A DNA stretch of 64,000 nt from Candidatus Latescibacterota bacterium (GCA_965197905.1 CBDAOB010000001.1:32001-96000), one strand, 5' to 3'. Counted from the stretch's first letter, positions 22,525 through 42,579 are shown. Notes: a model not told the origin generated them from the letters alone. Made by a program: numbers and translations.

Positions 22525-22525
22525 G

Positions 22526-24086: not shown

Positions 24087-24626
24087 TCAGGTACCGACCA
24101 AGTGCCGGTGCAGGCGCTCCAGATAGGTTGCAACGCTGCCGTCGTACACCGTGTCACCGATGCTAGCCACGGCGCCGCCGCGAATGGCCGGATCGACTTC
24201 GACGTGCAACCTTACCTCCTTGCCCGAAATCTCCGCCAGGCGCCGGCGCAGCCGTCCTATCTGATCTTCTCCCAGGGGAACGGCCGAACGAACCTCTGCG
24301 GAAATGACGCCGGATCTTTCGTCGCACAAGGCTTCGAAAAGCTCAAGCATTTCGGGAAGCAGGTCGGTGCGCCGCCGCTCGGTGAGGAGCAGGAGGAAGT
24401 TCAGGGTCAAACTCTGGACTCGTCCCCCGAACAAACGCTCGAGAGCACCACGCTGCAGCAATGAACTCATATAGCGATTGCCTACAAACGAGGCCAGCTC
24501 CTCCGATTGCTCGAGAGTCTGTCGTAGGCCCCGGACGTCGCTTCGAACCGCGTCGAGCACGCTACTTTCCTCGGCGGCTTCCAGCAGGGTGGCTGCATAG
24601 CGCCGAACTACCTCGGGTGCTTTCAT
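24087..24626 (-). CDS. atpH: ATP synthase delta
   Basis: RRYA..L, NFL.LL, SAVPL, VDP.I.GG, DGSV. Confidence 0.93.
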
Positions 24627-25305
24627 CTTCCTCTCGGAATCGCTTCGGGCCGGATGCGCTGCTCAATAACTGGCCTTGCAAAATTGCGGCGCAGAGGCGC
24701 CCGGCCCGCAAGACGCGCGATCGAGCCATATTGGTGGATATGGCGAGTGAGCGCAACGCAGCGGGCTGGGATGCATCGGCGGCGAAATGCAAGGACGGTT
24801 GTTGAACAGTGCATTGGTTGTCGCTGGGAATGCCCGCAATGAGGTCCTCGACAAGTTTGCGGTTGCGCTCGTCGTCCAGGTTCGCTTCGATCAGAGCACC
24901 GGCCGCTTTCACGGCCAGATCCGCCGTCTCCTTGCGCAACTCGGCTATAGCCGCCTGCTTTTCGCTCTCGATGGCGCGCCGCGCTTGCTCGGTCGTCCGC
25001 TGAGCCTCCTGGCGAGCGTTCGAGACGATTTCCTGCTCGACCTTCTCCGCCGCTTCCCGGGCCAGCCGGACGATCTCTCGCGCCTCGGCGTCGGCGCCCT
25101 GAAGTTTCTGCTGATGCTCTTCGACGATGGACTGAGCTTCTTTTCGAGACCGCTCCGCCGTCTCCAGCGCGTCGCTTATCCGTTTTTCCCGCTCGTCGAG
25201 CGCGCCAAGAAGCGGACGCCATACGGTTGCGCGCAGAACCACCAGCACCACAAAGAAGGTGACTAGGGTCCATATTATGGTTCCTACATGGGGATCTAAT
25301 AGCAT
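24562..25305 (-). CDS. atpF: ATP synthase b; reading frame runs ~80 codons past the expected end (~24814) through a palindromic element
   Basis: N-terminal TM, W.PL..ALDERE..I, coiled coil; b-like sequence ends at ...IAGIPSDN. Confidence 0.9.
   Translation of the reverse strand: MLLDPHVGTIIWTLVTFFVVLVVLRATVWRPLLGALDEREKRISDALETAERSRKEAQSIVEEHQQKLQGADAEAREIVRLAREAAEKVEQEIVSNARQEAQRTTEQARRAIESEKQAAIAELRKETADLAVKAAGALIEANLDDERNRKLVEDLIAGIPSDNQCTVQQPSLHFAADASQPAALRSLAISTNMARSRVLRAGRLCAAILQGQLLSSASGPKRFREEDESTRGSSALCSHPAGSRRGK
24654..24814. repeat. palindromic (MITE/RPE-like) element, copy 1
   Basis: Imperfect terminal IR ATGCGCTGCTCAATAACTGGCCTTGCA / TGCAAGGACGGTTGTTGAACAGTGCAT; folds as one long hairpin; core homologous to 34580..34685. 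Confidence 0.8.
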
Positions 25306-25325
25306 CTTCGGGTCTCGTCAGCTAG

Positions 25326-25565
<240 letters not shown>

Positions 25566-25589
25566 CTAGCCGTGCACATGTGATTCCCG

Positions 25590-26426
25590 CTAATGCTCCG
25601 GATGAGCAGCCATGTTGATAAACAAGGCAGATAGCAGGGTGAAGATAAACGCCTGAATAAAACCGATAAAGATGTCCAGCAAATAGAGAGCTACCGCGAA
25701 GGTCACCGAAAAGGGCGCCAGCCAGAGCGCCTTCATCATGATGACGAGGCCCAGAAAGACCAGGATCGCCACGTGTCCGGCGATCATGTTAGCGAAAAGT
25801 CGTATACAGAGGGCAAACGGTTTGGCGAGCAAGGAGATGAGCTCGATGGGAATCATGATAATCAACAGCGGCGCCGGCAACCCCGGGGGGATGAGGCTGC
25901 GAAGATATCCGAACAGACCGTTATTGGCGATGCCCGCTCCCTGGGTTATGAAAAAGGTCATCAGGGCCAGGGCGGCGGTCACACTTACGTTCCCGGTTGC
26001 CGTCGCGGTGTACGGGATCAAACCCAGCAGGTTGCAAAACAGAATAAAGAAGAAGACGGTCAACAGGTACGGTAGATACACCTTGCCGTGGTCGCCCATG
26101 ATCGGAACGACGACCTCGTCGCGGATAAAAACCACCAAAGCTTCGAAGAGATTGGCCAGACCACTTGGCACGAGGGCGGAACGACGAAAAGCGAGGGTGA
26201 GAGACACGATCAGGAGTGCGCTCGCCACCCACATCATCACGATATGTCGAGAGATTGACAGATCTACGGCGACCCCGAACACGTCAATCGGGGCAAACTG
26301 TGGAAGGGAAATCTTGCCGTCGAAGAAGTGGTTTGCGTTCCAGAATGGCACCTCGAGGTAGTCATGGTCGAGAATGTGACCGACGATATCTACCTCTTCG
26401 GACGCGTGCTCCTCGCTTGCCATCAA
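25590..26426 (-). CDS. atpB: ATP synthase a
   Basis: NLLGLIP, IRLFANMIAGH, IQAFIF. Confidence 0.96.
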   Translation of the reverse strand: MMASEEHASEEVDIVGHILDHDYLEVPFWNANHFFDGKISLPQFAPIDVFGVAVDLSISRHIVMMWVASALLIVSLTLAFRRSALVPSGLANLFEALVVFIRDEVVVPIMGDHGKVYLPYLLTVFFFILFCNLLGLIPYTATATGNVSVTAALALMTFFITQGAGIANNGLFGYLRSLIPPGLPAPLLIIMIPIELISLLAKPFALCIRLFANMIAGHVAILVFLGLVIMMKALWLAPFSVTFAVALYLLDIFIGFIQAFIFTLLSALFINMAAHPEH

Positions 26427-26501
26427 ACCTTCAAAAATCGGAGAAATTTAAGGGAAAAACTGGAACAGACGGCTCCTACTTCTGGTCGAGCCGGGGCATA
26501 A

Positions 26502-26528
26502 ATTATATTGGTGCCAAAATTCTGTCAA
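26502..26528 (-). promoter_or_regulatory. possible internal sigma70 promoter before atpB
   Basis: Perfect TTGACA and TATAAT hexamers but only 15-nt spacer. Confidence 0.4.
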
Positions 26529-26546
26529 CAGCCGCCAAGTGTGCTC

Positions 26547-26852
26547 CTACTCTGTAGTTGGGACCTGGAGCTGCCGCTGCCGCGCCTGTCTCGTGATCAG
26601 CGCGATTTCGAGAATCATGAACAAGATGTAAGCTCCGATCAGCACGAATATATAGACCGTGCTGTCGATGCTCGTGCGGGTGAGGAGCAGGTACGACGTC
26701 AAGCCCACGGCAATGAGACGAAAAAGGACTCCACCGCCGAAAAAGGCGAGGAATATGTGGAACTTCCGGTCCGCCGTCAGCGCGATTGCGGCCCATGCAA
26801 TTCCGGCGTTGACGGTCGCGACCGCCAGCCCCGCGAAAACCGCTTCAATCAT
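26547..26852 (-). CDS. atpI: AtpI-like membrane protein
   Basis: Hydrophobic ~101 aa, ATGA-coupled to the upstream gene, precedes atpB. Confidence 0.65.
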   Translation of the reverse strand: MIEAVFAGLAVATVNAGIAWAAIALTADRKFHIFLAFFGGGVLFRLIAVGLTSYLLLTRTSIDSTVYIFVLIGAYILFMILEIALITRQARQRQLQVPTTE

Positions 26853-27109
26853 TCGTCTTCCCCATTCCGCGCACTCTGGTCTACCGTTGCCTTGTAGATG
26901 CTGTAGAACCCCGACGCGATACCCAGCAGTATCCCGAGTATCAGAAAAAGGGGTGTGGTGGATAGCCATTCATCGATCCACAATCCGCCGAAGAGTCCGA
27001 TGGCGATAGCGGCCGCGAACTGGAATCCGACGTTGATGAAAGGTCCGGCTTTGGCGTAGGATCGCAGCAGCTTGCGGCTGCCTGATTCGGAATCGTCGTT
27101 CAAGGTCAC
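26849..27109 (-). CDS. atpZ: AtpZ/AtpI-family protein
   Basis: G.Q.A......F.G.W.D.W..T.P.F...G..LG...GF; GTGA-coupled to nuoN stop. Confidence 0.8.
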   Translation of the reverse strand: MTLNDDSESGSRKLLRSYAKAGPFINVGFQFAAAIAIGLFGGLWIDEWLSTTPLFLILGILLGIASGFYSIYKATVDQSARNGEDE

Positions 27110-28551
27110 ATCACCGAAACAACCGACGAACGGACAATACCGATCAATATGTCTGGGAATAGTCCCAGCGCAAGGGTGCTCGTCGCCGTCAGCAGCAGAA
27201 CAGCCATCGGTTCCGGCGAAATCCGGACTTCCAATGGCGCCGGCGCGGCCGGACGCATGTAGACGTCGACCACGAGGCGGCAGGAGACATAGGCAGAAAA
27301 CAAGGTTGTCAGCGCCGCGACCGCCACCAGCACGAATTGGCCGGCGTCTGCCGCTGCTCCCATCAGCAGAAAGCGACTTGCAAACCCGGCCGACGGAGGC
27401 AGACCCGCCAGATTGAGCAATAGGAGGGCGAAAATCAGCGCGATTGCGGGATGCCGATGAGCTAACCCCGCGTAGTCTCCAATCTCGGTATCGTCTTCGG
27501 CGGGACGACGGCACATCACCAGCAGAGAGTAACATCCCGCCGCCGCCAGAGCGCTCACGCAGATTTGAAACACTGCGCCGACCACTCCATCGGGATTGGC
27601 CGCCGCTATCCCCATCAATGCGAATCCACCTTGAGCGAGGAAGGCATACGCTAGCAAGCGTTTGAGGTTGCGCTGGTTCATAGCGAGAAGATATCCACCT
27701 ATCATGGTTGCGATGGCGAGGACGACGATCGCCGGAACCCATCGATCCGACAGCTGCTCGAAGCCGTAGAGAAAGAATCGCATGAGCACCGCCAGCGCGG
27801 CCGCGCCCGGAGCTACCGAAATGAAGCCTGCTACCGGCGCCGAGACACCGTGGCGCACATCGGGCGCCCACATGTGAAACGGCAGCACCGCGGTTTTGAC
27901 GCAGAGGCCTACGAGCAGGAATGCCAGGCCGCTGAGGAGCAGTGGATCGCCGGTGCCGCTATTCAATAGATGCACGGTCAATTCCCTTAGCCCGGTGGAA
28001 CCTACGGCGCCGTAGACCAGGCTGCCGCCGTAGAGGATTATGCCACTTCCCAACGCTCCCATAACGTAGAACTTCGCCGCGGATTCCACTGCGTGTTCCG
28101 GCCTCGCGGCGTATACGCTCAATACGCACAGGCTCAACGTCGTCAGCTCCAACCCCACATAAACTAGCACGAGGTCGGTCGCAGCCACCGATACCATTGT
28201 GCCGAGACCGGCGATCAAAAGCAAAGGGTAAAATTCGCTGCAGACGTCGCGCGGCAGATACTGCAACGCCAGCAGCACCGTCAGCACGGTGATACCCAGC
28301 AAGAGTACGTGGAAGAATGATGAGAACGCGTCGCGTGCATACATCCCCCCAAACGCCTCGGCGTTGACTTCCTGGTTCCATTCCATGAGCTCCAGGCAGA
28401 GGGCGATCAGGCCGACACAGAGACAGATATATCCGATTCCGCGGCTGGATCGGCGCGGCCAAAAGACCGCATCGAGCAGGAAAATCAAAATGGCGGCAGC
28501 GCCGACGACGATCTCTGGATAGAGGGCGGACCAATCTGCGGCCAAGCTCAT
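27106..28551 (-). CDS. nuoN: NuoN-like antiporter subunit (divergent)
   Basis: YVGLEL, ESAAKF...GA..SG..LYG, K....PFHMWAPDV, NLKRLLAY. Confidence 0.88.
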   Translation of the reverse strand: MSLAADWSALYPEIVVGAAAILIFLLDAVFWPRRSSRGIGYICLCVGLIALCLELMEWNQEVNAEAFGGMYARDAFSSFFHVLLLGITVLTVLLALQYLPRDVCSEFYPLLLIAGLGTMVSVAATDLVLVYVGLELTTLSLCVLSVYAARPEHAVESAAKFYVMGALGSGIILYGGSLVYGAVGSTGLRELTVHLLNSGTGDPLLLSGLAFLLVGLCVKTAVLPFHMWAPDVRHGVSAPVAGFISVAPGAAALAVLMRFFLYGFEQLSDRWVPAIVVLAIATMIGGYLLAMNQRNLKRLLAYAFLAQGGFALMGIAAANPDGVVGAVFQICVSALAAAGCYSLLVMCRRPAEDDTEIGDYAGLAHRHPAIALIFALLLLNLAGLPPSAGFASRFLLMGAAADAGQFVLVAVAALTTLFSAYVSCRLVVDVYMRPAAPAPLEVRISPEPMAVLLLTATSTLALGLFPDILIGIVRSSVVSVM

Positions 28552-30056
28552 GGCGTTCCCCCTTGCGGAGCTTTCACGGTGGTTTTGTGCCCCGGATCCG
28601 CGTGAGCCAGCACCTGTTCGATCGAGTGCGCCATCTTGTCGTGGATAGCCTGGGGACTCAACCCGATCCATAAGATCCCCAGGAACAAGGGAACCAGAAG
28701 GATTACTTCGCGGGGGCGCAGATCGTCACCGGGTGCAGGCGAAGTCCCGGCGCCGAACCCCAGACGCTGATAACGGCGCAGCAAGCTGGCAGCTAGAAAC
28801 AGCGATCCGATAACGGCGCCAATCGCGTAACCCAGATTTCGTTCCAGAGCGCCCAGGATCACGGAGATCTGGCTTACGAAAACGTTCAACCCCGGGATCC
28901 CGATCGCGGCCAGCATGATGAGGAGAAGGGCCGCACAGGTTTTCGGGTGGCTCCTGGCCAGCCCCCGCTCATCCTCCAGTCCCCTCCCTCGCAGAATTCC
29001 GGCCACTGCGAACAATCCCGCCATTACCAGACCCCGGTTGATCATGTGAGCCACCCCACCACCGACGCCGGCCACCGTCAGGGTTGAAAACCCCAGAACG
29101 ATCAAACCCACCTGGCTCACGGTCACATACGCCAGCAGACGCGGTAACTCCGCTTCGACGAGGGCGAGCAGACTGCCGTAGAGAATCGCACTCACCGCCA
29201 GCAGCAAGACATATTCGTCCACCCGGTGCAGGGCCTCAGTGAACAAGGGAACGCAAAACCTTACGAATCCGTAGATCCCCAGATTCAGCCAGATGCCCGT
29301 GACGACGATCGAGCCGGCGGAGCTGGCGTGTCTATGCAGATCCGCCAGCCAACTGTGGAACGGGAACAAGGCGGCCTTGAAGGCGAAACCAAAAAACATG
29401 GCTGCCAGGAGCCAGAGCTCGGCATCGGTTGACAGGGAGAGCTGGCTCAGGCGCGAAAACTCGAAACTCCGGGGCCCTTCCAGATCCGCTTGTAGCACGC
29501 CCAGATACACGATGGCACCGAGAATGAGGGCGCTTCCGGCCACATTCGTCAAAGCGAACTTCACCGCGGCATGGATTCGGCCCTCGCCACCCCACACGCC
29601 GACGAGGAGAAAAATTGGCAGCAAGGTGATTTCGAGGCTGATGTAGAACATGGTCAAGTCCAATGCCACGAACGCGGCAGCAGCTCCACCCGTTGCTGCC
29701 AGCAAGGTGGTCGAGAACTCCTTTACTCGGACCCGTACTTCGTTCCAGCTCGCCAGCTGGGCGATAGGCAGAAGCAGCGCCGCCAGCAAGACGAGAAGCA
29801 GGCTGATGCCATCCAGACCCACATGGTACTCGATCCCCAATTCCTGGATCCAGGTGTGGCGGTACTCCATTTGGGGTCCGTAGATGGCGTCGTCGAATAA
29901 TGCGTAGCAGACCGCGGCGATTGCGGTCTCCACCAGTCCGATTCCCAGGGACACGCCGCGGATCAAATCTTCCTTACCGCGGGGAAGCGCCATAACGAGA
30001 ACGGCGCCGGCCAGAGGCACCAGGATCAGCAGCGTAGGCAGATGATTCACATTCAT
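28548..30056 (-). CDS. nuoM: NuoM-like antiporter subunit (divergent)
   Basis: YHVGLDGIS, GVWGG..R..AA.KF, K..LFPFHSWL, YGF.RF. Confidence 0.88.
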   Translation of the reverse strand: MNVNHLPTLLILVPLAGAVLVMALPRGKEDLIRGVSLGIGLVETAIAAVCYALFDDAIYGPQMEYRHTWIQELGIEYHVGLDGISLLLVLLAALLLPIAQLASWNEVRVRVKEFSTTLLAATGGAAAAFVALDLTMFYISLEITLLPIFLLVGVWGGEGRIHAAVKFALTNVAGSALILGAIVYLGVLQADLEGPRSFEFSRLSQLSLSTDAELWLLAAMFFGFAFKAALFPFHSWLADLHRHASSAGSIVVTGIWLNLGIYGFVRFCVPLFTEALHRVDEYVLLLAVSAILYGSLLALVEAELPRLLAYVTVSQVGLIVLGFSTLTVAGVGGGVAHMINRGLVMAGLFAVAGILRGRGLEDERGLARSHPKTCAALLLIMLAAIGIPGLNVFVSQISVILGALERNLGYAIGAVIGSLFLAASLLRRYQRLGFGAGTSPAPGDDLRPREVILLVPLFLGILWIGLSPQAIHDKMAHSIEQVLAHADPGHKTTVKAPQGGTP

Positions 30057-30057
30057 A

Positions 30058-31959
30058 TCAAAATGCAACGAAGTAGAAGAGCGTGGCTACCAATCCCGCA
30101 GCGGCGACCGTGGCATACAATCCGACCCTACCGGTTTGGGTCGCGCAGAGAACCCAACCGATACCGCGGACAAACATCGCGCTGCCCCACACGCAACCGA
30201 GATCCAGGACAACCGTATCGACGGCGTCTCGCAAGAAACCCGCAATCCAGCGGAGAGGGCGAAGGACTACCTGCTGACATAGCCATTCGACGTAGAAGTG
30301 ATTTCGCGCCCATAGCTGCCAGAAACTCTCCTTCTCGGCCGGGGCTGTCTTGAACCCGAACAGGGTCCAGGCGATCCCTAGGCCGACCACAGCCGCCATG
30401 GCAGGCACGAACCAGTAGATCGTTTGCGGAAAATCGGTGGCGTAAGGCACGCTGACGGATAGCTCGGGCAGGATCATGCGGTAGAGTATCTGCGGCTCAA
30501 TCAGAAACGGAATCAACCCGGCTCCAAGGGTCGTAACCGACAGGACGATCAACGCCGCGGCGGCAGCGTGTGGCAGCGGTTTTGGCCGCTCGTCTTGAAC
30601 GGTTGCGGCGGGGCGGGCGTAGATGAGCAACACCACGCGAAAGCCGTAGAGGGCGGTCAGCAGCAAAGCAACGCAACCGACGACCCAGAGATGCAACATG
30701 TCCACCGAATAGATCGCCGCCATGGCCGCTCCCGTACTCCAGAAGGCGGCAGACGGGGGCAGTCCGACAAGACCTGTTATTCCGATGACGAAAGCCCAGA
30801 ACGGGACGAGGAGACGACCTGAACGCTGTGGCAGATTCCACACATCCAGATTGTGATTCGAGCGTGCCGAAAGCACTGAGGTACCGAGGAAAAGCAGGGC
30901 CTTTAGGCAAGCGTGAAGACAGACGTAAAGAATGGCAACCGCATGGGCACCCATGCCGACGACGGCAAGGACCAGACCCAGCTGGCTGGAGCTCGAGAAG
31001 GCCAGCACCTTCTTCAGATCGCGCTCTCCCAAGGCGACGAGGCCGGAGAAAATGGCCGTTGTCAGCCCGACTCCTATGAGAATCCATCGCAGGGACGGTG
31101 ACTGCTCGAGCAACACGCCTGCGCGCACCAGCGTATATACGGCGGCGATGCTCATGAAGCCGAAATGCACCAACGCGTTCGTCGAGGCCGGCGCCCTGGT
31201 CGCACTCGAAAGCCAGACGTGAAACGGAAACTGGGCGCTACGGCAAAATACGGAGACGAGCAGTAGGATCCCGGCCATCTGGGTCCAGCTGGAAGAGCCA
31301 GCTGTTTCCAACCCCTTGTATTCCAGCGTTCCCACTGCCGATGCCAGCATCAGGATGCAGATGAGAAGGGCCAGATCTCCCGCTCTGTCCACCACCCAGA
31401 AACCAAACGCGCCTCCTTCGGCGGAGGCACTGTGGGACTCGCTCAGAATGTCACCGGATTGAATCTCCGGTTCGGTTCGCTCGCGACCCCAGGTTGTCAG
31501 GAAATAACCGCAGATACCCAGCAACACCCATCCCCCATACAGCAAACCTAGATTGTTGGCGATCAGCAGCAGGGTCACCGCCGTCGAGGCCAGGCAGACC
31601 AGCGCGAAGAATCGGGCGCCGCTGCCATCGCGCTTGCGGGTGCCCACGGAAAACAGCTGGATAGCAAAAGCCAGGGTGGTCGTGGCAACCAGCAGTATCG
31701 CCGTGAGCCCGTCTACCAATACGCCGCAGGAAAAGGAAACATCACCGAGGCGCAGCCAAACAAACAGGATCTCATCGACCGTTTGCCCCTGGGACACTTG
31801 TGCAAAAACCAGCAAGGCGGCGCTCCACGACAAAAACAAAGCCGCGGTGGCAACCCACGCCGGCGCCTGCCCGCGGCCAAAGAGGATGCAGAGCGCGGCT
31901 CCTGAAGCCGGCGCCAACAGGACCAGGAGGGCGCCAATGAGGGTATCGGCAATCACCAT
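30058..31959 (-). CDS. nuoL: NuoL-like antiporter subunit (divergent)
   Basis: RSAQFPFHVWL, DLKKVLAFS..SQLG, HA..KALLFL, C-terminal QTG.V..YA. Confidence 0.88.
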   Translation of the reverse strand: MVIADTLIGALLVLLAPASGAALCILFGRGQAPAWVATAALFLSWSAALLVFAQVSQGQTVDEILFVWLRLGDVSFSCGVLVDGLTAILLVATTTLAFAIQLFSVGTRKRDGSGARFFALVCLASTAVTLLLIANNLGLLYGGWVLLGICGYFLTTWGRERTEPEIQSGDILSESHSASAEGGAFGFWVVDRAGDLALLICILMLASAVGTLEYKGLETAGSSSWTQMAGILLLVSVFCRSAQFPFHVWLSSATRAPASTNALVHFGFMSIAAVYTLVRAGVLLEQSPSLRWILIGVGLTTAIFSGLVALGERDLKKVLAFSSSSQLGLVLAVVGMGAHAVAILYVCLHACLKALLFLGTSVLSARSNHNLDVWNLPQRSGRLLVPFWAFVIGITGLVGLPPSAAFWSTGAAMAAIYSVDMLHLWVVGCVALLLTALYGFRVVLLIYARPAATVQDERPKPLPHAAAAALIVLSVTTLGAGLIPFLIEPQILYRMILPELSVSVPYATDFPQTIYWFVPAMAAVVGLGIAWTLFGFKTAPAEKESFWQLWARNHFYVEWLCQQVVLRPLRWIAGFLRDAVDTVVLDLGCVWGSAMFVRGIGWVLCATQTGRVGLYATVAAAGLVATLFYFVAF

Positions 31960-32255
31960 TTCAAACTGTCCACGGCCGAGAGATCGGTGTGGCCCCGCTG
32001 GCGGTGGAGGCCAATGACGATGGCCAGTCCCGCACCCACCTGAAGGGCGGCAAACACCAGCGCGAAAAGGGCGAAGAGCTCGCCGTTCAACTCGCCGTGC
32101 AGTCGGGCGAATCCGGCGATATTCAGCGCCGCGGCGTTGAGCATCAGCCCCGACGAAAGGACTACGGCGAGGGCGTTTCTGCGCATGAGCATGCCCGCCA
32201 ATCCGATGCAGAACAGGGCGGCGCTGACGATGAGGATGGGGAACGGCTGCATCAC
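31953..32255 (-). CDS. nuoK: NuoK-like subunit (divergent)
   Basis: LFCIG..G...RRN, LMLNAA.LN, GLAIVI...R, LKW end. Confidence 0.85.
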   Translation of the reverse strand: MMQPFPILIVSAALFCIGLAGMLMRRNALAVVLSSGLMLNAAALNIAGFARLHGELNGELFALFALVFAALQVGAGLAIVIGLHRQRGHTDLSAVDSLKW

Positions 32256-32767
32256 GAGGTGTGTTGCCCTCCGGGGGCGCTGCCGGCGGCCGAGTCGGGA
32301 CTCGTCAAGACCGACGTGCCCACAGCCACCACCAGAAACGCGAACCCGGTCAAAAGCAGTGGCAACAGGAAGTCGCCGACGAGAGACCCCGCCAGACTAC
32401 CGGTCTGCTCCATCTCGGAGATTGAACCACCCGCTGGCAGAATCAAGCAGAGCAGGGAGAACAAACAGGCACAAAGGACGGCAGCGACCATGGTCCCGAC
32501 GCGAACCCGTCTGACCGCGACGGCGGACTTGAGGTTGGTGGAAACCCCCACCACGAGACAGAGGAGAGCTGAGCCGGATAACCCTATAAGGACTTCGCTG
32601 GCCCCCAACAAAGGAGTGCCGAGCTGCAGGAAAAGAGCGGCGATGCCAAGTGTAGTCGCGCCAAACAAGAAGGCGGCGCGCACGGCACTCCTTGCGGAGA
32701 CGGTGAGAATCGCCATGATCAGACAAAAAACGGCAACCAGACCGAAGGCGGCAGCTTCCAGTGTCAT
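32252..32767 (-). CDS. nuoJ: NuoJ-like subunit (divergent)
   Basis: Hydrophobic 5-TM pattern between nuoH and nuoK; ATGA-coupled on both sides. Confidence 0.75.
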   Translation of the reverse strand: MTLEAAAFGLVAVFCLIMAILTVSARSAVRAAFLFGATTLGIAALFLQLGTPLLGASEVLIGLSGSALLCLVVGVSTNLKSAVAVRRVRVGTMVAAVLCACLFSLLCLILPAGGSISEMEQTGSLAGSLVGDFLLPLLLTGFAFLVVAVGTSVLTSPDSAAGSAPGGQHTS

Positions 32768-34534
32768 CTGTACACCAGCATATACGCAGCAATAGGAATA
32801 TTGAGGGCGGTCAGAGGGATGGCCACCCTCCAAGCCCAGCACACGAGCTGGTCCATGGAGGGGCGCGGTACTACGAGGGTAGGGTCGAGAACTGGCGCGC
32901 CAGCCTTAGGGTTCGGTGGGTTCCCCATGGCTTTCGCCATAGCCCTCAGTCCGACTCCCATCGCTACGTTTCCAGTTCCCGCCGCCTCAAACCGGACGTG
33001 CGGATCTCCCGCATCCGGCTTCCCGACGAACGTCACATCCAGGCACACGCCACAAGGACTTCACCTGGTAGTCAAGCTGCTTCCGATGCATACTAGTCTT
33101 ACTGCTGGAGGCAATAGGCTCACGCCACTCTCCAACCCTCTGCACTTCCGCAGCATGTCCGAAGTCAGGCCCCTTCCCTCCACCGGAGTTACCCGGCTTC
33201 CTCGGTACTACGCGCCTGTCCGCCACCTCATCCAGCCCAGTCTGGCCCTCGCGGGTTACCGGTTGGAGGCACTCGCTGCTTCCACCGGATGAGGCTTCCC
33301 GTGTTGCGCCACATCTCCTCTTACACACATGCTGTCGCCACTACCCCGGCGGAACAGCTGGGTGCGCTTGTCGCTCGACTTCCCCAGCTGCAGCGGCCTT
33401 CCCTGGTTTACGGGCAGGTCGGCTTCCGCATTACACTTTTCGAGGCCTGCTCAGCGTTTACTCACGTTACGGCCTGTGTGCTCGCCAAGTCGCCCAAGGC
33501 GACCCTCTACACCGGAGGCTTCAGCGGCTTCGTCGCCTCCACCACTGCTCCGATTGCTACCGGCTGGAGCGACCCTTGCCGGGTGGGATTCGCACCCACT
33601 GAAGATGTGCGCCTTAGCACGGCGCACCGTAACCATTGTGTGAACAACATGAACAGCATCGATTTCGCCAACAGCAGAGCGACCCCAAGGAGCGCCCACC
33701 CCCCCCTCCTTCCCCTTCCGCGACGAACGGCAAGTGCCAGCCGCCAAGGTAGAGCGTCGCCACCAGCAGGCTCGCGGCCAGCAATCGCAAGCGCCCGGCA
33801 AGGGCCAGCAAACCCAGCGGGAGTCCGCTGTAGGAGGCTGCGTAACCGGCCTCCATTTCCTGAGACCGGCCCGAATCGAGTGGTAGGCGGTCGGCGAACG
33901 CGAAGGTTGCCGCCACCATTCCGAGGAAACCAAGTGGCTGGACCAGCAGATTCCACCGTGGCAGAAGCCCTGGAGTTGCCGCTTGGGAGCGAACGATCTC
34001 CGCCAGTTGCATGGATCCGCCGGCCAATGCCACGCCAGCTATCGCCAATCCTGCAGCGATACCAAAACTCACGACCTGCGACGCCATATTCAGCGAAGCG
34101 ATCTGGGCATAACCGTGACCGGAACCCCGGCCCGCCGCGATCAACCCGAAAGCGGCAAGCGGGATTAGCGCCACGACAACCATTGTACCGGCGCCGGCGG
34201 ATGCCAGCTGCAGTGACATGGAGAGTCCTCCGATCTCAACATCTTTCCCGAATGGAATCAAGCCAAGCAGAATCAGCGGCGGCAGCAGCGAAACGAGGGG
34301 CGCCAGGAAGAATATTCGTCGGTCACCAGCCTCCGGAGCCACACACTCCTTGCACATCAGCTTCAGGCCATCGGCGTAGGTTTGCAGCAGTCCAACGCCC
34401 CTAGCCCCGTCGTACCGTCCAGTGGCGACCCGGGTCCAACCCCTTTCAAGGAGAATGGAGAGCGGAATGAGGATACCGAAGGTCGCCCCCAGCAGCACTG
34501 CCGCCTTGATCACCAGAATGGGAATCTCTTGCAT
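32764..34534 (-). CDS. nuoH: NuoH-like subunit split by a group II intron (exon 1 34534..33628, exon 2 32878..32764) and by a frameshift at G8 (33699-33706)
   Basis: GLLQ..ADGLKL..KE, WN...QPLGF, LYLGGW; spliced C-terminus WLRLVVPRPSMDQLVCWAWRVAIPL matches NuoH WxRxxxPRxRxDQLxxxxWKxxxP. Confidence 0.85.
32879..33627 (-). mobile_element. ORF-less group II intron (749 nt)
   Basis: 5' GTGCG; domain V AAGCCGGATGCGGGAGATCCGCACGTCCGGTTT (33021-32989); 3' end CTCGACCCTAC; EBS1-like CGTAA complementary to exon end TTACG; no RT ORF. Confidence 0.93.
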
Positions 34535-34579
34535 GACTAACGTTCGCTCGTGTCCTCTACGAGAAATAGGTTGACCGTC

Positions 34580-34685
34580 GTCTGCTGCCGAGGCGCGGGG
34601 ATTGCAAGGCGCCTGAGCGAGCCTGTACTGGTGGAGTACGGCGAGTGAAGGCAACGCCGCAAGCCCCGATGGATCGGCGGCAGAC
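34580..34685. repeat. palindromic element, copy 2
   Basis: IR GTCTGCTGCCGA / TCGGCGGCAGAC; same internal loops as 24694..24777; begins at nuoG stop codon. Confidence 0.8.
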
Positions 34686-36343
34686 TACTTGCGATGGTCG
34701 TCCACATGCAGAAACCCCCATTGCTGTAAGCGATCTGACCAGCCGGCCCCGTAGGCCTGCCCAACTACTCTCTCGTCCTGTTCGCGACTCTGCAGCGACT
34801 CGTAGGTGAGTTCGCTGAATATGCCGCCGACCTCTTGACTCATTTCCACCAGTATCTCCTCTGGTTGCTGGAACTGCCGCTGCATCGCGGTCGCGGCCAG
34901 CCGTTGCAACACCTGCCATTCGGGCAGCACGCCGGGTGGCCCGGCGATGCAGCCCCGTATCCGCTGCACTCTACCGTCGAAATTGGTAAAGGTGCCTTCC
35001 TTTTCGAAAGGCGTCAGTCCGGGAACCACCAGATGCGCGGACTCGGTCAGCGACGAAGGGATGGTCGCGTGGACGACCAGCAACTCTAACTCGTCGAAGG
35101 TGTAGCCACCCGTCGACATCGATTCCACCAGCGCATCCGAGCCGACGACATAGGCGCGGGTGATGGTGCGGTCGACGATACCCGCCATCAAGCGCTGTGT
35201 GGATTCCAGCTCAATGTCGAGTGCACTGGCGATCTCCTTTACTCCGCGCCCGTTGGGTGTTCTGTCCTCACGGATTGTGAACCCCGACTTGAAGGCGATT
35301 TCCCGGCCCTTTCTACCTTCTTCGAAACAGACCAGTTGCGCGCCCCAGACATCCGTGGCCAGCTTCAGCAGCAGGTACGCCTCCTCGTTGGTCAGTGTGC
35401 CATTCAGCACCACCGCCAAACCGCCCTCCGCACCCAACAGGTGACGGTCGGCAAACGCCAGTGCCTGTTCCCACGTCGCCTGCTCTTGGTCGCCGCCCTC
35501 CCGGATACGCGGTTCCGCGAGCCGATCGTGGCGCTGGATTTCCCGCCAGCCGTAGCGGCCCTCGTCGCACATCCAATAGCCGTTTACCGCCAGGTTGGCT
35601 CGAGGTTTGAGCCGCTGGATGTCGCCGCTGTAGACATCGACCCTGATATTGCAGCCGGAACTGCAACCGGGGCAGATCGAGTTTATACCCTGAAGTGTCC
35701 AAGGAGGTGGATCGAATCGAGACTCGGGTTCGACTAGAGCGCCCACGGGGCAGATGTCAACGTTGTTCCCGGACATACCGTCTTGCAGTTCTCTTCCAGG
35801 AAACAGGCTGACCACGGTTTCCGCTCCCCGAAATGCCGGACTGAGCTCGCCTCCCCCCGAGATCTCATCCGTGAACCGGGCACAGCGATTACAGCCAATG
35901 CAACGGCTGGAATAATACGACACCTGCGGACCAAAGCGTACCGGCGGCGCGTTCCTTTTCGGCCATTCCGCATCGCTCCATTTTGGACCATGGGAGTCGG
36001 CATGATCCTGCAGCTCGCATTCGCCGGCTTTGGAGCAGGTGGAACAGTCGAGAGCGTGTTTCCGAAGCAGAAACTCCAATACATCCGATCTCGCTTTCAG
36101 CACCGCCTCGGAGTTCGTGGAAACAACTAGTCCGTCCACCACCGGCTGGTTGCAGGTAGGCGCCAGCACGGTGGAACCGCCGTCGCCGAACTCGGCCACG
36201 CACAGCCTGCAGCTGGCGGGACTGGAGAGTGCCGGATGGAAACAGAAGTGTGGAATGAACTCACCGGCTTGCAAGGCGGCGAGCAGTAGGTTGCCGCCCT
36301 GGCGCACCTCTATCGTTTCGCCGTTCAGCTGGATTGTTGGCAT
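34685..36343 (-). CDS. nuoG: NuoG-like Fe-S subunit (short form)
   Basis: CFH...SCRLC...TC; HALDCSTC...GEC; CIGCNRC...ICPVGAL; CPGCSSGC...C. Confidence 0.9.
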   Translation of the reverse strand: MPTIQLNGETIEVRQGGNLLLAALQAGEFIPHFCFHPALSSPASCRLCVAEFGDGGSTVLAPTCNQPVVDGLVVSTNSEAVLKARSDVLEFLLRKHALDCSTCSKAGECELQDHADSHGPKWSDAEWPKRNAPPVRFGPQVSYYSSRCIGCNRCARFTDEISGGGELSPAFRGAETVVSLFPGRELQDGMSGNNVDICPVGALVEPESRFDPPPWTLQGINSICPGCSSGCNIRVDVYSGDIQRLKPRANLAVNGYWMCDEGRYGWREIQRHDRLAEPRIREGGDQEQATWEQALAFADRHLLGAEGGLAVVLNGTLTNEEAYLLLKLATDVWGAQLVCFEEGRKGREIAFKSGFTIREDRTPNGRGVKEIASALDIELESTQRLMAGIVDRTITRAYVVGSDALVESMSTGGYTFDELELLVVHATIPSSLTESAHLVVPGLTPFEKEGTFTNFDGRVQRIRGCIAGPPGVLPEWQVLQRLAATAMQRQFQQPEEILVEMSQEVGGIFSELTYESLQSREQDERVVGQAYGAGWSDRLQQWGFLHVDDHRK

Positions 36344-36397
36344 GGTTTCCGATGGTCGCAATATGTCAAAACGTTGACGCTGGTGTTGAGCATCGTG

Positions 36398-37740
36398 TTA
36401 GAAGCGGACGCTGACCGCTTCGGGGACCTTGATCGCCAGATCTTTTTCGACGGGACAGCCGCCAGAATCGATATGCTGTCTGAATTCGCTCTCGAACGCG
36501 CTTACAAACCCTGCAGCGGCCAGGCGAAGGCGGCTCCCAGGCCACACAGCATCGGCGATGCCGAAACCATCAGCGGCCCCATTTTTTCACCTAACTCGAA
36601 CAACCTGCCGAGATCTCCTTCCGTACCTTCCCCCGATTCGACCCGGGCGATAATGTCGCGCATCCACGGCATCCCCTCGCGGCACGGGGTGCACTCGCCG
36701 CAGGATTGCCCGGCGTAGAATTCGGCTAGATTGAGGGCGGCATCTACCATACAGGTCGTCTCGTCCATGACAATGATCCCGCCAGTGCCGAAAACACCGC
36801 CGAACTCTCCTCCTCCCGGGTGCAGCCACGCTGCCGGATCCAGAGGCACATCCAGCTGGTCGGCGTGTAGAACCGGCGACCGACCTCCCCCCGGAAGCAC
36901 GGCCTTCAGCTGATGCCCCGAGCGCACGCCACCCCCCATCTCGTAGATGACTTCACGCAAGGTCGAAGCCCCCAGCGGCAGTTCGTATAGGCCCGGCCTG
37001 CTCACGTGTCCGCTCAGGCAAAAAACGAGGGTGCCGGGATACCCCTCGCTACCGATGCCTCGGAACCAGTCGGCGCCGTTGTTCACGATGTGAGGCAGAT
37101 ATGCCAGGGTACCGATATTGGCGACCTCCGCCGGCTTGCCGAAGAGCTCCGGGACGACCGCGGTGCCGCGGGGTTCCGCCCTGAAACCTTCGATAGAGCG
37201 CAGGAGAGCCGTCGCTTCGGTCTCGATATAGGCGTCCCCGCCTGGATGTACATACACCTCGAGAGCATAACCCGTCTCCCGAACGTTGGCGCCCAGCCAG
37301 CCGTGCTCGCGCGCCGACGCTATAGCCCGCTCCAGCAACGCTCGGCCCCGGCTCATATCGCTACGCAGGCAAACGTAAACGGTCGAGGCGCGCAGAGTGT
37401 ACGCGGCGATGATAATGCCTTCGAGTATCTGATGGGGATTGCGCTCCAGCAGCTTCCGATCGCGGAACGTGCCCGGTTCGCTCTCGTTGCCACCGACACA
37501 GAGAAACTCCACTCTGCCAGCCCGTTTCTGGGCATGGTTTCTCCACCGGGCAGCGACGGGGTACCAGTCGCCGCCCCTGTCCTGCAGACCGGACTGTTCG
37601 ATCAGGTCCAGCACCTCGCCCGGTGGTCGGCGTCGCACAGCGATCTCCGCGGCGGCGTAACCTCCGTTGGCGACATAGGTGTCCCACAGTTCGATGTCGG
37701 GGACGTCGATGTCGTTCAACAGCACGCGAAACTCAGCCAC
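36398..37740 (-). CDS. nuoF: NuoF-like subunit with degenerate FMN motifs and a frameshift near 36509
   Basis: ESEPGTF.DR, SGHV.RPG.YE, SCGECTPCREG...CGLG; C-terminus FVSAFESEFRQHIDSGGCP continues in another frame to TAA at 36398. Confidence 0.85.
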
Positions 37741-38224
37741 CGGACTCTCCCTCTAGCGAAAGCTTCAATCTCTCAAGGATCTGATCGATGCGTTCCAGCG
37801 TGAGACTCTGATGCAACTCGCCATCGACCAGTATGACCGGGCCCATGCCGCAACAGGCAAGGCAATCAACTTCCTCCACGGCTACAAGCGAGTCGCTGAC
37901 GTCGATCTCCGCCAACCTCTCTTTCAGGTACTCAACCACCCGCGTGGCCCCCATCAACCGGCAGGAGAGCGTACCGCAGACACGAATCAGGTGTGCTGGC
38001 GGCGGTTGGAGACGAAAAGCGGGATAGAAGGTGGCTACTCCATAGACCCGGGCGGGAGAAAGATTCAGCTTGCCCGCAACGAACTCGATGGCCTCTTCCG
38101 AGAGGTAGCCAGCCTCACTCTGAACCAGATGCAACACCGGCAGCAAGGCCCCGGATGGCTGGGGATAACGGCGGGTGAGATCGTCGTACTCCACCACCGC
38201 TTTTGCCGAAAGCTTGAAGCTCAT
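37733..38224 (-). CDS. nuoE: NuoE 2Fe-2S subunit
   Basis: ALLPVLH..Q, VATFY, VC..LSC...G, CLACC..GP. Confidence 0.92.
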   Translation of the reverse strand: MSFKLSAKAVVEYDDLTRRYPQPSGALLPVLHLVQSEAGYLSEEAIEFVAGKLNLSPARVYGVATFYPAFRLQPPPAHLIRVCGTLSCRLMGATRVVEYLKERLAEIDVSDSLVAVEEVDCLACCGMGPVILVDGELHQSLTLERIDQILERLKLSLEGESGG

Positions 38225-39920
38225 CGATCCACCTCTCCGGCTACCACGTTGAGGCTACCCAACACCACCAGCGCCTCGGATAGGGTCATCCCATGAGCGA
38301 CATGTTCAAAGAGCTGATAATTCAGAAACGATGGCGCCCGCACCCGCAAACGGTACGGACGGTCGGAACCGTCGCTGACGATGTAGAATCCCAGCTCACC
38401 GTTGGGCGATTCGGTGGGTAAATAGGAGTCCGCGTCTGGAGGCGGCTGAATTCCGTGTCCTTCCATCCAGAGTTTGAAGTGGTGAATCATGGATGATGCC
38501 TGACTGGAGATCTCACTCCTCTGTGGGCGCCGAGCGTTTGAATTCATCGTCGAGTAGTCGCCGCCGGGAAGATCGCGGAGCGCCTGGCTGACGATGCGGC
38601 AGCTCTGGACGAGCTCTTCGACACGCACCAGATAGCGGTCGTGCACATCGCCGGTTACTCCCACAGGGACGTCGAAATCGAACTCTTCGTAGGCGCTGTA
38701 CGGCTCGTCCTTTCGCAGATCGCAACCGACGCCTGCCGCCCGCGCCACCGGGCCGCTCAACCCCCACGACCTGGCTTCGGCCACACCGATCGTCCCGACC
38801 CACGCGCCCGATCCAACCACACTCCATTGCCGTCCCACAGCGCTCGAAGCTCGGCGACCCCGCGCATCATGTCCGACAGAAATGCCGATACCCTTGCTGA
38901 GAATTCGGGCGGCAGATCGGCGGCGATTCCGCCCACGCGAACGAAGCTTGTCATCCATCGGTTTCCCGCAATGGATTCGTAGATGTCGCACAGCGCTTCC
39001 CGCCGCGTGTCAACAAGCTGGAACAGACCGTGGGCAGCGATTTGCCGGGCCTGAGACCCCAACCAGATGAGATGCTCGCCGATGCGCCCCAGTTCGCTGA
39101 GTATAACCCGGGCATACTGGGCTCTTTCAGGAACATCGACGCCCAGCAAGCGCTCGACGCACAGAACAAAGGCGAGGTTGTTGCAGAACGGCGATTGATA
39201 GTTGATCCGGTCGGTGACAGTTACAAACTGCATGTAGCTCTGATTTTCACCCAGCTTCTCTACGCCCGAATGAACAAATCCAAGATCCAACCCCACCCGA
39301 GATATCATATCCCCTTCCGCTTCCAGGTCGGCGCTCAGATTGCCTGTCATTCCCGGGTGAAGCGGCCCCAGCCGCAGGAGGTTGGAGTCGTCGACACCTT
39401 GTTGGTTCCCGGGCGCCTCCTCGCCGGGGGGCGAAACCCCGACCGGGGCAGAGCCGCACCCGGCGACGGGAAAGTCCTTGCGCAATGGAAATGATTCGAA
39501 ACTGTCGGGAAGCAGGATTCTGCGCATGTCCGGATGACCGCGGAAACGGATGCCAAACATGTCGTAGACCTCGCGCTCGAGCCAGTTCGCCGCAGGCCAC
39601 GAAGAAGCGATGCTTTCCACTTCATCGATATCCGGATCTAGTGGAACCCTGAGGCGAAGCCGGAAACCTGAGATGGACGAACGCAGTTGGTAGACGAGTT
39701 GGAAACGTTTGCCACGGCCCAGGTGGAGTCGGTCCACAGCCGTGAGGTCAACGAGGGTGTCCAACCGATCGCCATCGTGGCCGCTTAAGAATTCCAACAG
39801 AGGTTCCAGATCGGCAACCGAGACGTCCAGCGTCCACTCGCCCCGCAACTCTAGAGGTTGCAGGCGAGCTGCCCCCAGGAACTCCCGCAGGTCTAAGAGG
39901 ATCGGGGTTTCGGTTGCCAT
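38221..39920 (-). CDS. nuoCD: fused NuoCD-like subunit with a frameshift near 38800
   Basis: [30 protein letters not shown] (C); H.G.EK, GP..RA.G...[19 protein letters not shown] (D), split over two frames. Confidence 0.85.
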
Positions 39921-39936
39921 AGCGGACGCAGCCAGC

Positions 39937-40311
39937 CTAGCGAAATCCGCTCTTGCGCCAAGCGTACACAAGACCGGTCCCGACGATGACCATAAAACCG
40001 AGAATCCCGGCTACCGAGTCGTGGCCGCGCTCAAGCAGAGTGCGGAATTCAGCTGCCCAAATCAGCAGGAAGGCCAAAACGCCTGGCAGCATCAAAGTCA
40101 CGAAGACAAATCCGTAATAACGGAAGGGAAATTCACGCGGTCCTCCGAACGCGGGCCGTCCCGATTCGAACCTGGAGGTTGCGGTGCCGGTGGGTTGGTC
40201 CGGCCGCAGTCGCCGTGCAATCATCGAGCAGAAAAATACCCCCGCCAGCGCCATGATTATCAGAATTGGGATGGCGGCGTACTGCTCTATCGTCGGGGGG
40301 TAGGTTGACAC
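39937..40311 (-). CDS. nuoA: NuoA-like subunit (divergent)
   Basis: 3 TM, FESG (for YECG), [12 protein letters not shown]. Confidence 0.8.
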
Positions 40312-40422
40312 GATTAGGTGGCCGCCATGGCTCGCAAGGCACCCGGAGTGCTCAAGGACGAGCGCCGAATCAAATAATCCGGCCTCAGGCCGCGAGCCGG
40401 GATGGATCGCGGTAGCAGGAAA

Positions 40423-40665
40423 TCAGACCGTCGTCGCTTCGCTTCTGGTGCTAACTGCCTCACCCGATTGCGACGAGAACTCGTCGTCGTCCGAACACGA
40501 ACCTGGAGGAGCGCCACACTCGCAGAGGGGTTGTCCGAACTCGTCGCTCATGGCACTCAGGCCGCCACAGGACCCTTTGATACGGCGGTTGCTAAAGATC
40601 ACACCGACCGCCATACCGGCAATGACTAAGCCAAATACCAAAAGCGCTGCAACGTACTGTTCCAC
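40423..40665 (-). CDS. nqrM: Na+-NQR maturation factor (DUF539)
   Basis: MAVGVI....IKGSCGGL......CEC......C directly after nqrF. Confidence 0.88.
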
Positions 40666-40677
40666 TAATCCTCTTTC

Positions 40678-41916
40678 TCAGCCGAAGTCGTCGAAACGGA
40701 TCATTTCCTGCTCGACACCGAGGTCGTCGAGCATCTTCATCACCGCCTGCAACATCAGTGGCGGGCCGCACAAATAGTATTCGATATCTTCGGGCGCCGG
40801 GTGTTGCGACAGGTAGTTGTCGAGGACCACCTGGTGAATGAATCCCATGTAGCCAGTCCAGTTGTCTTCGGGCAACGGTTCAGACATGGCAACGTGGAAT
40901 TTGAAATTTGGATATTCCGCTTCGATCTTGCGGAAATGATCCTCGTAGAACAGCTCTTTGCTGGAACGAGCCCCGTACCAGTAGGAAACCTTGCGGTTCG
41001 TGTGTTCGGTATGAAAGAGGTGAAAGATGTGCGATCGCAACGGAGCCATGCCGGCCCCACCTCCGACGTACATCATCTCGCGCTCAGTTTCCTGAATGAA
41101 GAACTCCCCGAATGGACCGGAAATAGTCGCTTTGTCCCCCGGTTTGAGATTGAATACGTAAGAGGAGACGATTCCCGGATTCACATTCATCCACCCTCCC
41201 TTTTCGCGGTCGGGGGGAGGTGTGGCGACGCGAATATTCAACATGACGATGTTGCCTTCGGCCGGGTGGTTCGCCATGGAGTAGGCTCGGACTACGGTTT
41301 CGGGGTTGACCGTCTTCAAATCCCATACCCTGAAGCGGTCCCAGTCATCGTGGAATCTTTCTTCGATGTCGAAACCGCGGAAGTCGCATTCGAACGGCGG
41401 CACCTCAATCTGAATAAACCCTCCCGATTCGAAGTTGAGTATCTCGCCCTCGGGTAGCTTGAGAACCAGCTCTTTTATGAAGGTGGCGACGTTGTTGTTC
41501 GACACCACTTCGCACTCCCACCTCCTCACCGAGAAAACTTCTGCGGGTACGTCTATTTTCATGTCCTGCTTGACGCTGACCTGGCAGGACAGCCGCATCC
41601 CCTCGCGAGCTTCGCCCTTGGTAATGTGCTCCAGCTCGGTAGGCAGTATATCTCCGCCTCCATCGTGCACGTGGACCTTGCATTGGGCGCAGGTGCCTCC
41701 GCCACCACATGCGGACGAAACGAAGATCTGACTGTCGGCCAGTGCGTTCAACAGCTTGCCGCCAGTGGGCACCGAAATGGAGCGGTCCGGATCGTTGTTG
41801 ATAAGGATGTTGATATCGCCGCTGGGTACCAGCCGCGAGCGGGCGACGAGAATCAGCGCCACTAGAAACAACACGACCATGGTGAACATGCCGACGCCGG
41901 CGCCGATCTCAGTCAT
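40678..41916 (-). CDS. nqrF: Na+-NQR subunit F
   Basis: [44 protein letters not shown]. Confidence 0.97.
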
Positions 41917-41965
41917 CTGAACATTCTCTCTCTATCATTCACCCTGAGAAGCTTGCGACAGGACA

Positions 41966-42577
<612 letters not shown>

Positions 42578-42579
42578 AA

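Follow-up and report, generated by a model that had tools for sequence, protein, structure and literature searches.

The nuo operon studied here, from Candidatus Latescibacterota bacterium, probably encodes a non-pumping, catalytically degenerate complex I that has been kept for a secondary role and freshly broken in the genome that carries it. The operon occupies positions 27106-40311 on the minus strand of a stretch of 64,000 nucleotides (GCA_965197905.1 CBDAOB010000001.1:32001-96000, or G000:C1:32001-96000 by our genome and contig labels), which we call the window and to which all coordinates refer unless a contig is named. The genome, G000, is a 6.69-Mb assembly of 5 contigs with ~58% G+C and an estimated completeness of 91%. 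It was compared with two congeners (G001 and G002; genus g1), with family-mates from two further genera (G006 and G014), and with two outgroups from other families of the class (G030 and G040). At the level of sequence, these comparisons show that key residues have been lost, that the loss is derived, and that the genes have been under purifying selection since. Few bioenergetic machines are as conserved as complex I, and its buried Lys/Glu axis and the His and Asp of its quinone site are central to the debate on the coupling mechanism. The open-access literature searched yielded no account of a complex I degenerate in this way.

The residues were checked by aligning each subunit, residue by residue, to solved complex I chains from the PDB; helix numbers, residue roles and the numbering in NuoF, NuoL, NuoM and NuoN follow the complex I literature. 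In NuoK, both Glu residues of the transmembrane (TM) helices are replaced, one by Gly and the other by Gln (SSGLMLN for S(I/V)ELMLN and AALQVG for AA(A/C)E(A/V)). In NuoA, FDxE has become LPGV, and the Glu of YExG is present in the form FESG, chloroplast and cyanobacterial chains having YESG here. NuoJ reads EVLIGLSGS for QILIYVGAV, the conserved YxGA of TM3 being GLSG. The changes in NuoH are SYE to SFG, EYSG to SYSG, AEY to AGR and AExxRLPFDLPExEEE to AFADRLPLDSGRSQE; when the G002 orthologue is aligned with the PDB chains, most of the E-channel carboxylates of this subunit are seen to be replaced. The complement of E-channel carboxylates in NuoH, NuoA, NuoJ and NuoK that typifies canonical complex I is therefore absent. 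The antiporter-like subunits are affected as well. NuoL has GWV for GWE in TM5, CRSAQ for GKSAQ in TM7 (Lys to Arg) and STG for SKD in TM12 (Lys-Asp to Thr-Gly). NuoM has WLNLG for LLK(F/M)G in TM8 (Lys to Asn) and FVSQ for F(I/V)GE in TM12 (Glu to Gln), and NuoN has APG for APK in TM8 (Lys to Gly) and SRF for (A/S)KF in TM12 (Lys to Arg). The canonical series of Lys and Glu in TM5, TM7, TM8 and TM12 is thus incomplete, NuoL being without its TM5, TM7 and TM12 residues and NuoM and NuoN without those of TM8 and TM12. NuoM and NuoN have kept Glu in TM5 and Lys in TM7, and NuoL its TM8 His and the HxxxK of TM11, none of which the original prediction had mentioned.

The original prediction, made from the sequence of the window alone, had named these replacements, and the alignments agree with it for NuoK (both TM Glu), NuoJ (VYAGA), NuoH (the SYE, AExxR, EYSG and AEY motifs), NuoL (GWE, GKSAQ and SKD), NuoM (LLKMG and FVGE) and NuoN (the TM8 Lys and the KF motif). 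For NuoA, the acids of FDVE are indeed gone, but the change from YECG to FESG, which had been counted as a loss, is not one, since the Glu is kept. The replacements are not peculiar to one genome: the three species of the genus have identical states at most of the named key positions, although G001 differs in TM12 of NuoM (Q versus A), in NuoH and in NuoA.

The peripheral arm has also lost residues. In NuoD (Thermus numbering), His38 is Thr or Pro in the genus (Thr in G000), Asp139 is Gln and Tyr87 is present, leaving the quinone-site triad incomplete. According to Degli Esposti (2015; PMC4758237), where the part played by this triad is set out, H38 and Y87 bind quinone. The NADH pocket of NuoF is eroded, as judged from the intact G002 orthologue against the PDB chains: KPPFPA has become GTAVAPE, CGEE has become ETEA and NNVE has become VNIG. 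Where canonical chains have GRGGAGFPTG.KW, ADESEPG, YICGEET, KPPFP and NNVET, the G002 protein reads DRGGGWYSVAARW, GNESEPG, YIETEAT, GTAVAPE and VVNIGT. The pocket of the genus is thus not the canonical one, and the same motifs are canonical in the outgroups. The Cys and His ligands of the Fe-S clusters in NuoE, NuoF, NuoG, NuoI and NuoB are present in G000 and G001.

The outgroups indicate the direction of change. In G030 and G040 the gene order is the same, without nuoB and nuoI in the operon and with a short NuoG, and canonical residues are found at every key motif; G030 also shares the nuo-to-atp synteny of G000. Further orthologues of this operon type are found among protein clusters such as P0252-P0258. 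Proteins of the G030/G040 type are 23-49% identical to those of genus g1 and 50-74% identical among themselves. To count the losses, we aligned each subunit with 55-79 diverse homologues (16 each for NuoE and NuoF) and called a column invariant when it was conserved in at least 90% of them; the homologues came from loci found with NuoL in genome contigs, at 25-34% identity, and the genus itself was absent from them. The genus keeps 9-11 of the 24 invariant columns of NuoA (outgroups, 23), 42-45 of 64 in NuoH (59-61), 4-5 of 15 in NuoJ (12-14), 9-10 of 15 in NuoK (11-12), 51-53 of 104 in NuoL (99), 53 of 83 in NuoM (78-79) and 41 of 54 in NuoN (47). For the peripheral arm the corresponding values are 59-60 of 73 in NuoD (66), 62-63 of 80 in NuoF (72-73) and 11-12 of 15 in NuoE (13). 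Over the 359 membrane-arm columns, the genus has 209 present and 150 replaced (58% present) and the outgroups 326 and 33, and the losses, as estimated from these alignments, exceed chance and ordinary divergence.

The original prediction had proposed selection on fold but not on pumping. The first half of this proposal stands, but a loss specific to the pump does not. Of the charged invariants 48 are present and 34 lost, and of all other invariants 161 are present and 116 lost (p = 1.0). Residues of the quinone site and the NADH pocket have gone as well, and the TM5 Glu and TM7 Lys mentioned above are kept. As far as these counts go, residue loss is not selective for charged or pumping residues. 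Invariant Gly and Pro, on the other hand, are preferentially present (69/97 versus 140/262 for the others; odds ratio 2.1, p = 0.003), and the retained invariants are near-fixed inside the genus (47/52 in NuoL, 48/53 in NuoM and 41/41 in NuoN). An AlphaFold2 model of NuoL (predicted local distance difference test score, pLDDT, 80; predicted template modelling score, pTM, 0.82) retains the TM core, a 54-residue lateral helix and the C-terminal anchor, and matches NuoL/ND5 chains with TM-scores of 0.76-0.82 (Foldseek).

The degenerate form is found in several relatives. Syntenic operons are present in G002 (NuoL 89% identical) and G001 (63%) and are unbroken in both. Among 5.8 billion proteins, only 5 clusters match NuoL at 63% identity or above, and the next match is at 29%. 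In G014, every subunit found aligns in one piece, nuoJ was not recovered with the queries used, and NqrB is encoded on the same contig. In G006 a short contig carries only nuoG to part of nuoM, unbroken and degenerate. The change from Lys to Arg in TM7 of NuoL is common to g1, G006 and G014, and both the Lys to Arg change in TM12 of NuoN and the change from GRGG to DRGG in NuoF are common to g1 and G014. NuoCD is intact, with 564-570 amino acids (aa), in all five protein clusters at 64% identity or above, and the relatives without His38 are full-length (564-627 aa). In a quick maximum-likelihood (ML) search, in which G014 stands on a long branch, all 16 NuoCD without His38 form a single clade (SH-like approximate likelihood-ratio test, SH-aLRT, 99), sister (94) to the canonical type including G030 and G040. 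NqrB, from the Na+-translocating NADH:quinone oxidoreductase (Na+-NQR), is found in 21 of the 24 genomes of the family that were searched, in 12/12 of a second family and in 0/4 of outgroup families.

The genes evolve under constraint. Between G000 and G002, the ratio of nonsynonymous to synonymous substitution rates (dN/dS), calculated by the NG86 method, is 0.08 for nuoK, 0.13 for nuoG, 0.15 for nuoN, 0.155 for nuoM, 0.20 for nuoL, 0.29 for nuoE, 0.32 for nuoA and 0.55 for nuoJ, whose open reading frame (ORF) includes a doubtful 5' extension; nuoB and nuoI, encoded elsewhere, have 0.13 and 0.20. Twenty-six neighbouring genes have 0.017-0.17, a 27th, atpF, having been dropped as a mis-chosen ORF; among them the nqr genes have 0.017-0.11 and 7 of 8 atp genes 0.06-0.12. 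The concatenated membrane arm gives 0.174 (bootstrap 0.145-0.203). With three species, ML estimates of omega are 0.124 for the membrane arm and 0.098 for NuoE plus NuoG in the peripheral arm, the nuo estimates spanning 2,577 codons, and 0.024 for atpD. Between G000 and G001 dS is saturated, and dN is 0.22-0.29 for NuoK, NuoL, NuoM and NuoN and 0.44-0.52 for NuoA and NuoJ. With G001 as the outgroup, the G000 branch has no nonsynonymous excess (48:175 versus 58:138), and no extra relaxation is seen on that branch. By these measures, constraint on nuo is relaxed but still present. In the original prediction, dN/dS near 1 was to mark plain decay, and the values found, 0.174 pairwise and 0.124 by ML, are far lower. 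Its view that the operon is not in simple neutral decay is upheld, because the losses are shown and derived and the genes are under purifying selection in several species and genera; the membrane-arm dN/dS of 0.12-0.17, the unbroken congener operons, the shared states, the NuoL fold and the kept Gly and Pro all speak for it.

In G000 itself, the operon is broken at three places. DNA alignments with both congeners place a 1-nt deletion near 38800 in nuoCD, a 1-nt deletion near 36508 in nuoF and a 2-nt insertion in a G-run near 33705 in nuoH, all in G000 only. Frames are broken in 3 of 11 nuo genes and in 0 of 26 neighbours (Fisher p = 0.021); as a whole, the nuo genes of G000 are not uninterrupted. 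An intact NuoCD in the protein collection (P0242; 566 aa) is 94-95% identical to the two halves of the G000 protein. A conserved or programmed frameshift in nuoCD was ruled out, since the deletion is in G000 only and the apparent split pattern came from a split query. An alternative genetic code with TGA as Trp was also ruled out, as table 4 does not repair the frames. The three recent frameshifts have probably inactivated the complex in G000.

The nuoH gene (32764-34654) also carries an insert of 749 bp at 32879-33627. It is not an insertion sequence (IS) element disrupting nuoH but an ORF-less group II intron on the minus strand, in the sense orientation to nuoH (Rfam RF02003, 106.8 bits; RF00029, 39.2 bits). 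It begins with GTGCG, its exact excision restores the nuoH frame at that place, and it may simply be spliced out. G000 has at least 12 full-length copies of the intron at 99.7-100% identity, 9 of them identical and several clustered at the start of contig C2; other copies lie, for example, at G000:C2:6727-7475, C3:300408-301156, C4:593542-594290 and C5:2488115-2488863. At least 10 identical full-length maturase frames (566 aa) are found elsewhere in the genome, and the near-identity of the copies points to a very recent burst of mobility. The intron is very abundant in sequencing runs, an RNA library included. In nuoH, the site without the intron is spanned by contigs from runs X1, X3 and X5. 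Those of X3, otherwise near-identical to the window, cover 33631-34283 and 35993-37239 without gaps and so carry the nuoH and nuoF frameshifts (2 of the 3 shifts recur); since they are without the intron, they represent a different genotype.

The scheme that we favor is as follows. An ancestor within the family would have lost the residues that couple redox chemistry to pumping: His38 and Asp139 of NuoD, the E-channel carboxylates of NuoH, NuoA, NuoJ and NuoK, the TM8 and TM12 Lys and Glu of NuoM and NuoN, the TM5, TM7 and TM12 residues of NuoL, and part of the NuoF pocket. The Fe-S ligands, structural Gly and Pro, and overall folds were retained. The complex would still assemble but could not pump by the canonical mechanism, since the His of the β1-β2 loop of NuoD, the loops of NuoH and NuoA, the E-channel and the TM8 and TM12 residues are replaced; it is probably a poor quinone reductase, if one at all. 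Energy-conserving NADH oxidation would fall to the adjacent Na+-NQR, which is likely the energy-conserving NADH dehydrogenase. Our best guess for the remaining role would be an uncoupled, low-efficiency electron-transfer or redox-balancing enzyme, favored because the Fe-S ligands have all been maintained, as have NuoB and NuoI at their separate loci; second would come a membrane scaffold without catalytic activity. More tentatively, and with less confidence than we have in the scheme itself, the complex may be a clade-wide pseudo-enzyme of ~14 subunits, represented by 16 NuoCD clusters and in no fewer than three genera of a single family, dead at the quinone site and the pump and selected as an assembled Fe-S membrane scaffold, redox buffer or sensor beside the flanking Na+-NQR and ATP synthase.

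A number of observations weigh against a retained role, and many of them would suit a plain relic, whose function was lost once Na+-NQR took over, which is disappearing everywhere, and whose open frames and low dN/dS reflect lag, selection against misfolded, toxic membrane proteins or read-through transcription into atp, the complex itself having no function. Many family members have no match to NuoL or NuoB, among them the closest relatives of the genus by NqrB identity (G004, G020, G011, G005 and G018), so nuo loss is tolerated. G000 has its three frameshifts, the X3 strain has a 294-bp in-frame deletion in nuoG (window 35089-35384), and NuoG of G002 has Arg for the first Cys of the CIGCNRC Fe-S motif (SRRIGCNRC; L033), where G000, G001 and the outgroups have Cys; on the G000/G002 branch at least, such lesions suggest that the complex can be dispensed with. 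Constraint is relaxed about 3-fold: at 93-94% AtpD identity, NuoL is 63% identical in genus g1 versus 87% in a canonical genus, and so evolves ~3x faster than there. The replaced positions drift. Replaced invariants vary inside the genus like the average residue (in NuoL, 35/52 identical versus 381/632 overall), and the His38 position is T, P, A, S, R or G across the clade, so that the site looks decayed rather than re-specialized and there is no sign of a new specific chemistry. Loss of His38 is by itself no proof of a dead quinone site, because H38S is reported in myxobacterial complex I, and archaeal Fpo is reported to have Tyr87 but neither His38 nor Asp139 (PMC4758237). The RNA library X12 contributed just two contigs, short and identical, that could stem from DNA carry-over and are no proof of transcription. 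We nevertheless consider a plain relic unlikely. Between G000 and G001 dS is saturated and yet dN has stayed at the levels given above (at most 0.29 for NuoK, NuoL, NuoM and NuoN, and 0.52 for NuoA and NuoJ); omega is 0.10-0.12 over the 2,577 codons; the three separate loci (operon, nuoB and nuoI) all retain their Cys ligands, nuoB and nuoI as intact genes and the operon in frames that are open in the congeners; orthologues are unbroken in two further genera as far as the contigs reach, with 16 full-length NuoCD clusters in one clade; and the G000 branch shows no nonsynonymous excess.

It is highly improbable that the complex is still a pump with a modified quinone site and a rewired path for H+ or Na+, the path running over new polar residues, the His and Lys that NuoL retains, and the Glu (TM5) and Lys (TM7) left in NuoM and NuoN. 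Such a pump could draw on the 48 of 82 charged invariants still present, the retained Fe-S chain, Tyr87 and lateral helix, and the His38 substitutions that PMC4758237 describes in working complexes. However, both Glu of NuoK, the Asp and Glu of NuoA and most NuoH carboxylates are replaced in all three species. In the antiporter-like subunits, replacement extends to TM12 of all three and, in NuoM and NuoN, to the TM8 Lys. Most of the new residues are neutral or hydrophobic, and at several sites they differ between species (Q or A in TM12 of NuoM, G or S in NuoH), so that they are under no site-specific constraint. It is also quite improbable, though less so, that the G000 frameshifts are assembly or sequencing errors and that its operon is as intact as that of G002. 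Two of the three frameshifts lie in or beside short G-runs, the assembly has the 5 contigs and 91% completeness stated above, and the absence of a nonsynonymous excess on the G000 branch fits an error as well. Against this, 26 of 27 neighbours align with G002 end to end in a single frame, the exception being the mis-chosen atpF ORF, and the X3 contigs carry the nuoH and nuoF shifts without the intron, with the proviso that X3 may not be independent of the assembly source.

Among known systems, canonical bacterial complex I (T. thermophilus 4HEA, E. coli 7Z7S and M. smegmatis 8E9G) shares with the g1 complex the same 14 subunits, the Pfam families, the Fe-S Cys and the NuoL fold with its lateral helix. 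It differs in having what g1 lacks: His38 and Asp139 of NuoD, the E-channel carboxylates, the NuoK Glu36 and Glu72, the Lys and Glu of TM8 and TM12, and part of the NuoF pocket. Myxobacterial complex I and archaeal Fpo resemble g1 in that His38 (in Fpo also Asp139) is replaced and Tyr87 kept; they are described as working, whereas in g1 the membrane arm is degenerate too (Degli Esposti, 2015; PMC4758237). In M. leprae-type decay of nuo, the likeness lies in redundancy (here with Na+-NQR), in losses among relatives and in the G000 frameshifts; unlike such decay, the g1 lineage has open frames and dN/dS of 0.1-0.2 despite saturated synonymous sites. Pseudogenised or lost nuo operons are known where other NADH dehydrogenases serve, Mycobacterium leprae being an example, and in myxobacterial complex I and Fpo the pumping residues are kept. 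If the favored scheme is true, the genus and its relatives would offer structural and mechanistic studies a ready set of natural 'uncoupled' variants, a rare multi-subunit membrane pseudo-enzyme, and a case study of the fate of complex I after takeover by Na+-NQR. If the operon is instead a slow relic, it would calibrate how long a 14-kb operon for membrane proteins looks intact after loss of function. Metabolic inference from genomes is affected too, as such operons are annotated as working complex I.

The operon lies between two others on the minus strand (Pfam and NCBIfam), nqr at 40678-46559 and atp at 19848-26969. It has 11 genes in the order nuoA-CD-E-F-G-H-J-K-L-M-N, nuoC and nuoD being fused; homologues of all 14 core complex I subunits are found in G000, Pfam placing A, C-H and J-N in the operon and B and an I-like protein elsewhere. 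All genes of the operon are on the minus strand. The nuoA gene (39937-40311; 124 aa; PF00507) is uninterrupted. In nuoCD (38221-39971), PF00329 and PF00346 fall on two overlapping ORFs, split by the deletion. The nuoE gene (37733-38224; 163 aa; PF01257) is uninterrupted and has its 2Fe-2S Cys. In nuoF (36398-37740) the deletion cuts off the last ~36 codons, and the Cys of cluster N3 are present. The nuoG gene (34685-36361; 558 aa) is short, as it is in the outgroups (538 aa), and nuoH, with its 2-nt insertion and intron, matches PF00146. The remaining genes are uninterrupted: nuoJ (32252-32842; PF00499), with a true start probably near 32767, nuoK (31953-32255; 100 aa), nuoL (30058-31959; 633 aa), nuoM (28548-30068; 506 aa) and nuoN (27106-28671; an ORF of 521 aa with likeness to solved chains from residue 44). 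Pfam also matches nuoF, nuoG, nuoK, nuoL, nuoM and nuoN. The prediction of unbroken frames in nuoA, J, K, L, M and N was correct, and the predicted start/stop couplings are seen as four-base overlaps at nuoJ/nuoK (32252-32255, GTG start) and nuoD/nuoE (38221-38224, ATG start). No second canonical nuo operon, and no second NuoH or NuoD homologue, was found by tblastn and by PF00146 and PF00346 searches of the 91%-complete assembly, a check that the original prediction had proposed. The presence of NuoE, NuoF and NuoG in the operon rules out an Mrp antiporter, a group 4 hydrogenase or Fpo, and a separate Mrp-like cluster lies on contig C5. The genome size rules out a tiny-endosymbiont origin. 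A planctomycete origin was set aside, the closest named matches to AtpD being from metagenome-assembled genomes that carry the label Latescibacteria or Gemmatimonadetes (80-83%). A scan of 26000-41000 for promoters and terminators gave counts no higher than in shuffled sequence.

Both nuoB and nuoI lie outside the operon on contig C5 and are intact, with all Cys present. NuoB has 170 aa and the CC...C...CP ligand pattern (PF01058, 89 bits), and its gene adjoins that of an Mrp/ApbC-type ATPase. The start of nuoB abuts the end of this NBP35/Ind1-like P-loop ATPase gene (L001 1441-2777, or G000:C5 ~1975680-1977016, minus strand; ORF ends 1953 / 1953), and the ATPase may be a factor for Fe-S delivery that is coupled to the subunit with cluster N2. 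The NuoI-like protein has 142 aa and two CxxCxxCxxxCP motifs, scores 77.9 bits against TIGR01971, under the 113-bit cut-off, and is encoded between rny and dxr. In the outgroup G030, the NuoB most like that of g1 adjoins a second NuoB and a NuoI-like gene (G030:C2:2703102-2705492; L140), possibly a second complex I-like module. Matches to NuoB in genus g19 (e.g., G039:C151:23204-23650) have one in-frame TGA in the surrounding frames in most genomes, which may mark the boundary of a gene or reflect recoding.

Upstream of nuo, nqrA, B, E and F are above or near the NCBIfam cut-offs and nqrD is full-length relative to G002; these are the five of the six nqr genes that were checked. The F-type ATP synthase operon (atpI-like, B, E, F, H, A, G, D and C; Pfam and NCBIfam) lies directly downstream of nuoN. 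Elsewhere in the window, a hybrid PAS histidine kinase/response regulator is encoded on the minus strand in two overlapping ORFs (2009-3400 and 1483-2016, together 1483-3400), and G002 is ~517 bp longer at the junction; a deletion, or one more broken gene, is the probable explanation. On the plus strand, two full-length aceE-type E1 paralogues (55111-57795 and 60903-63569) with ~69-70% DNA identity flank aceF and lpd, and both score above the aceE cut-off and below that of the 'AKGDH_not_PDH' exception.

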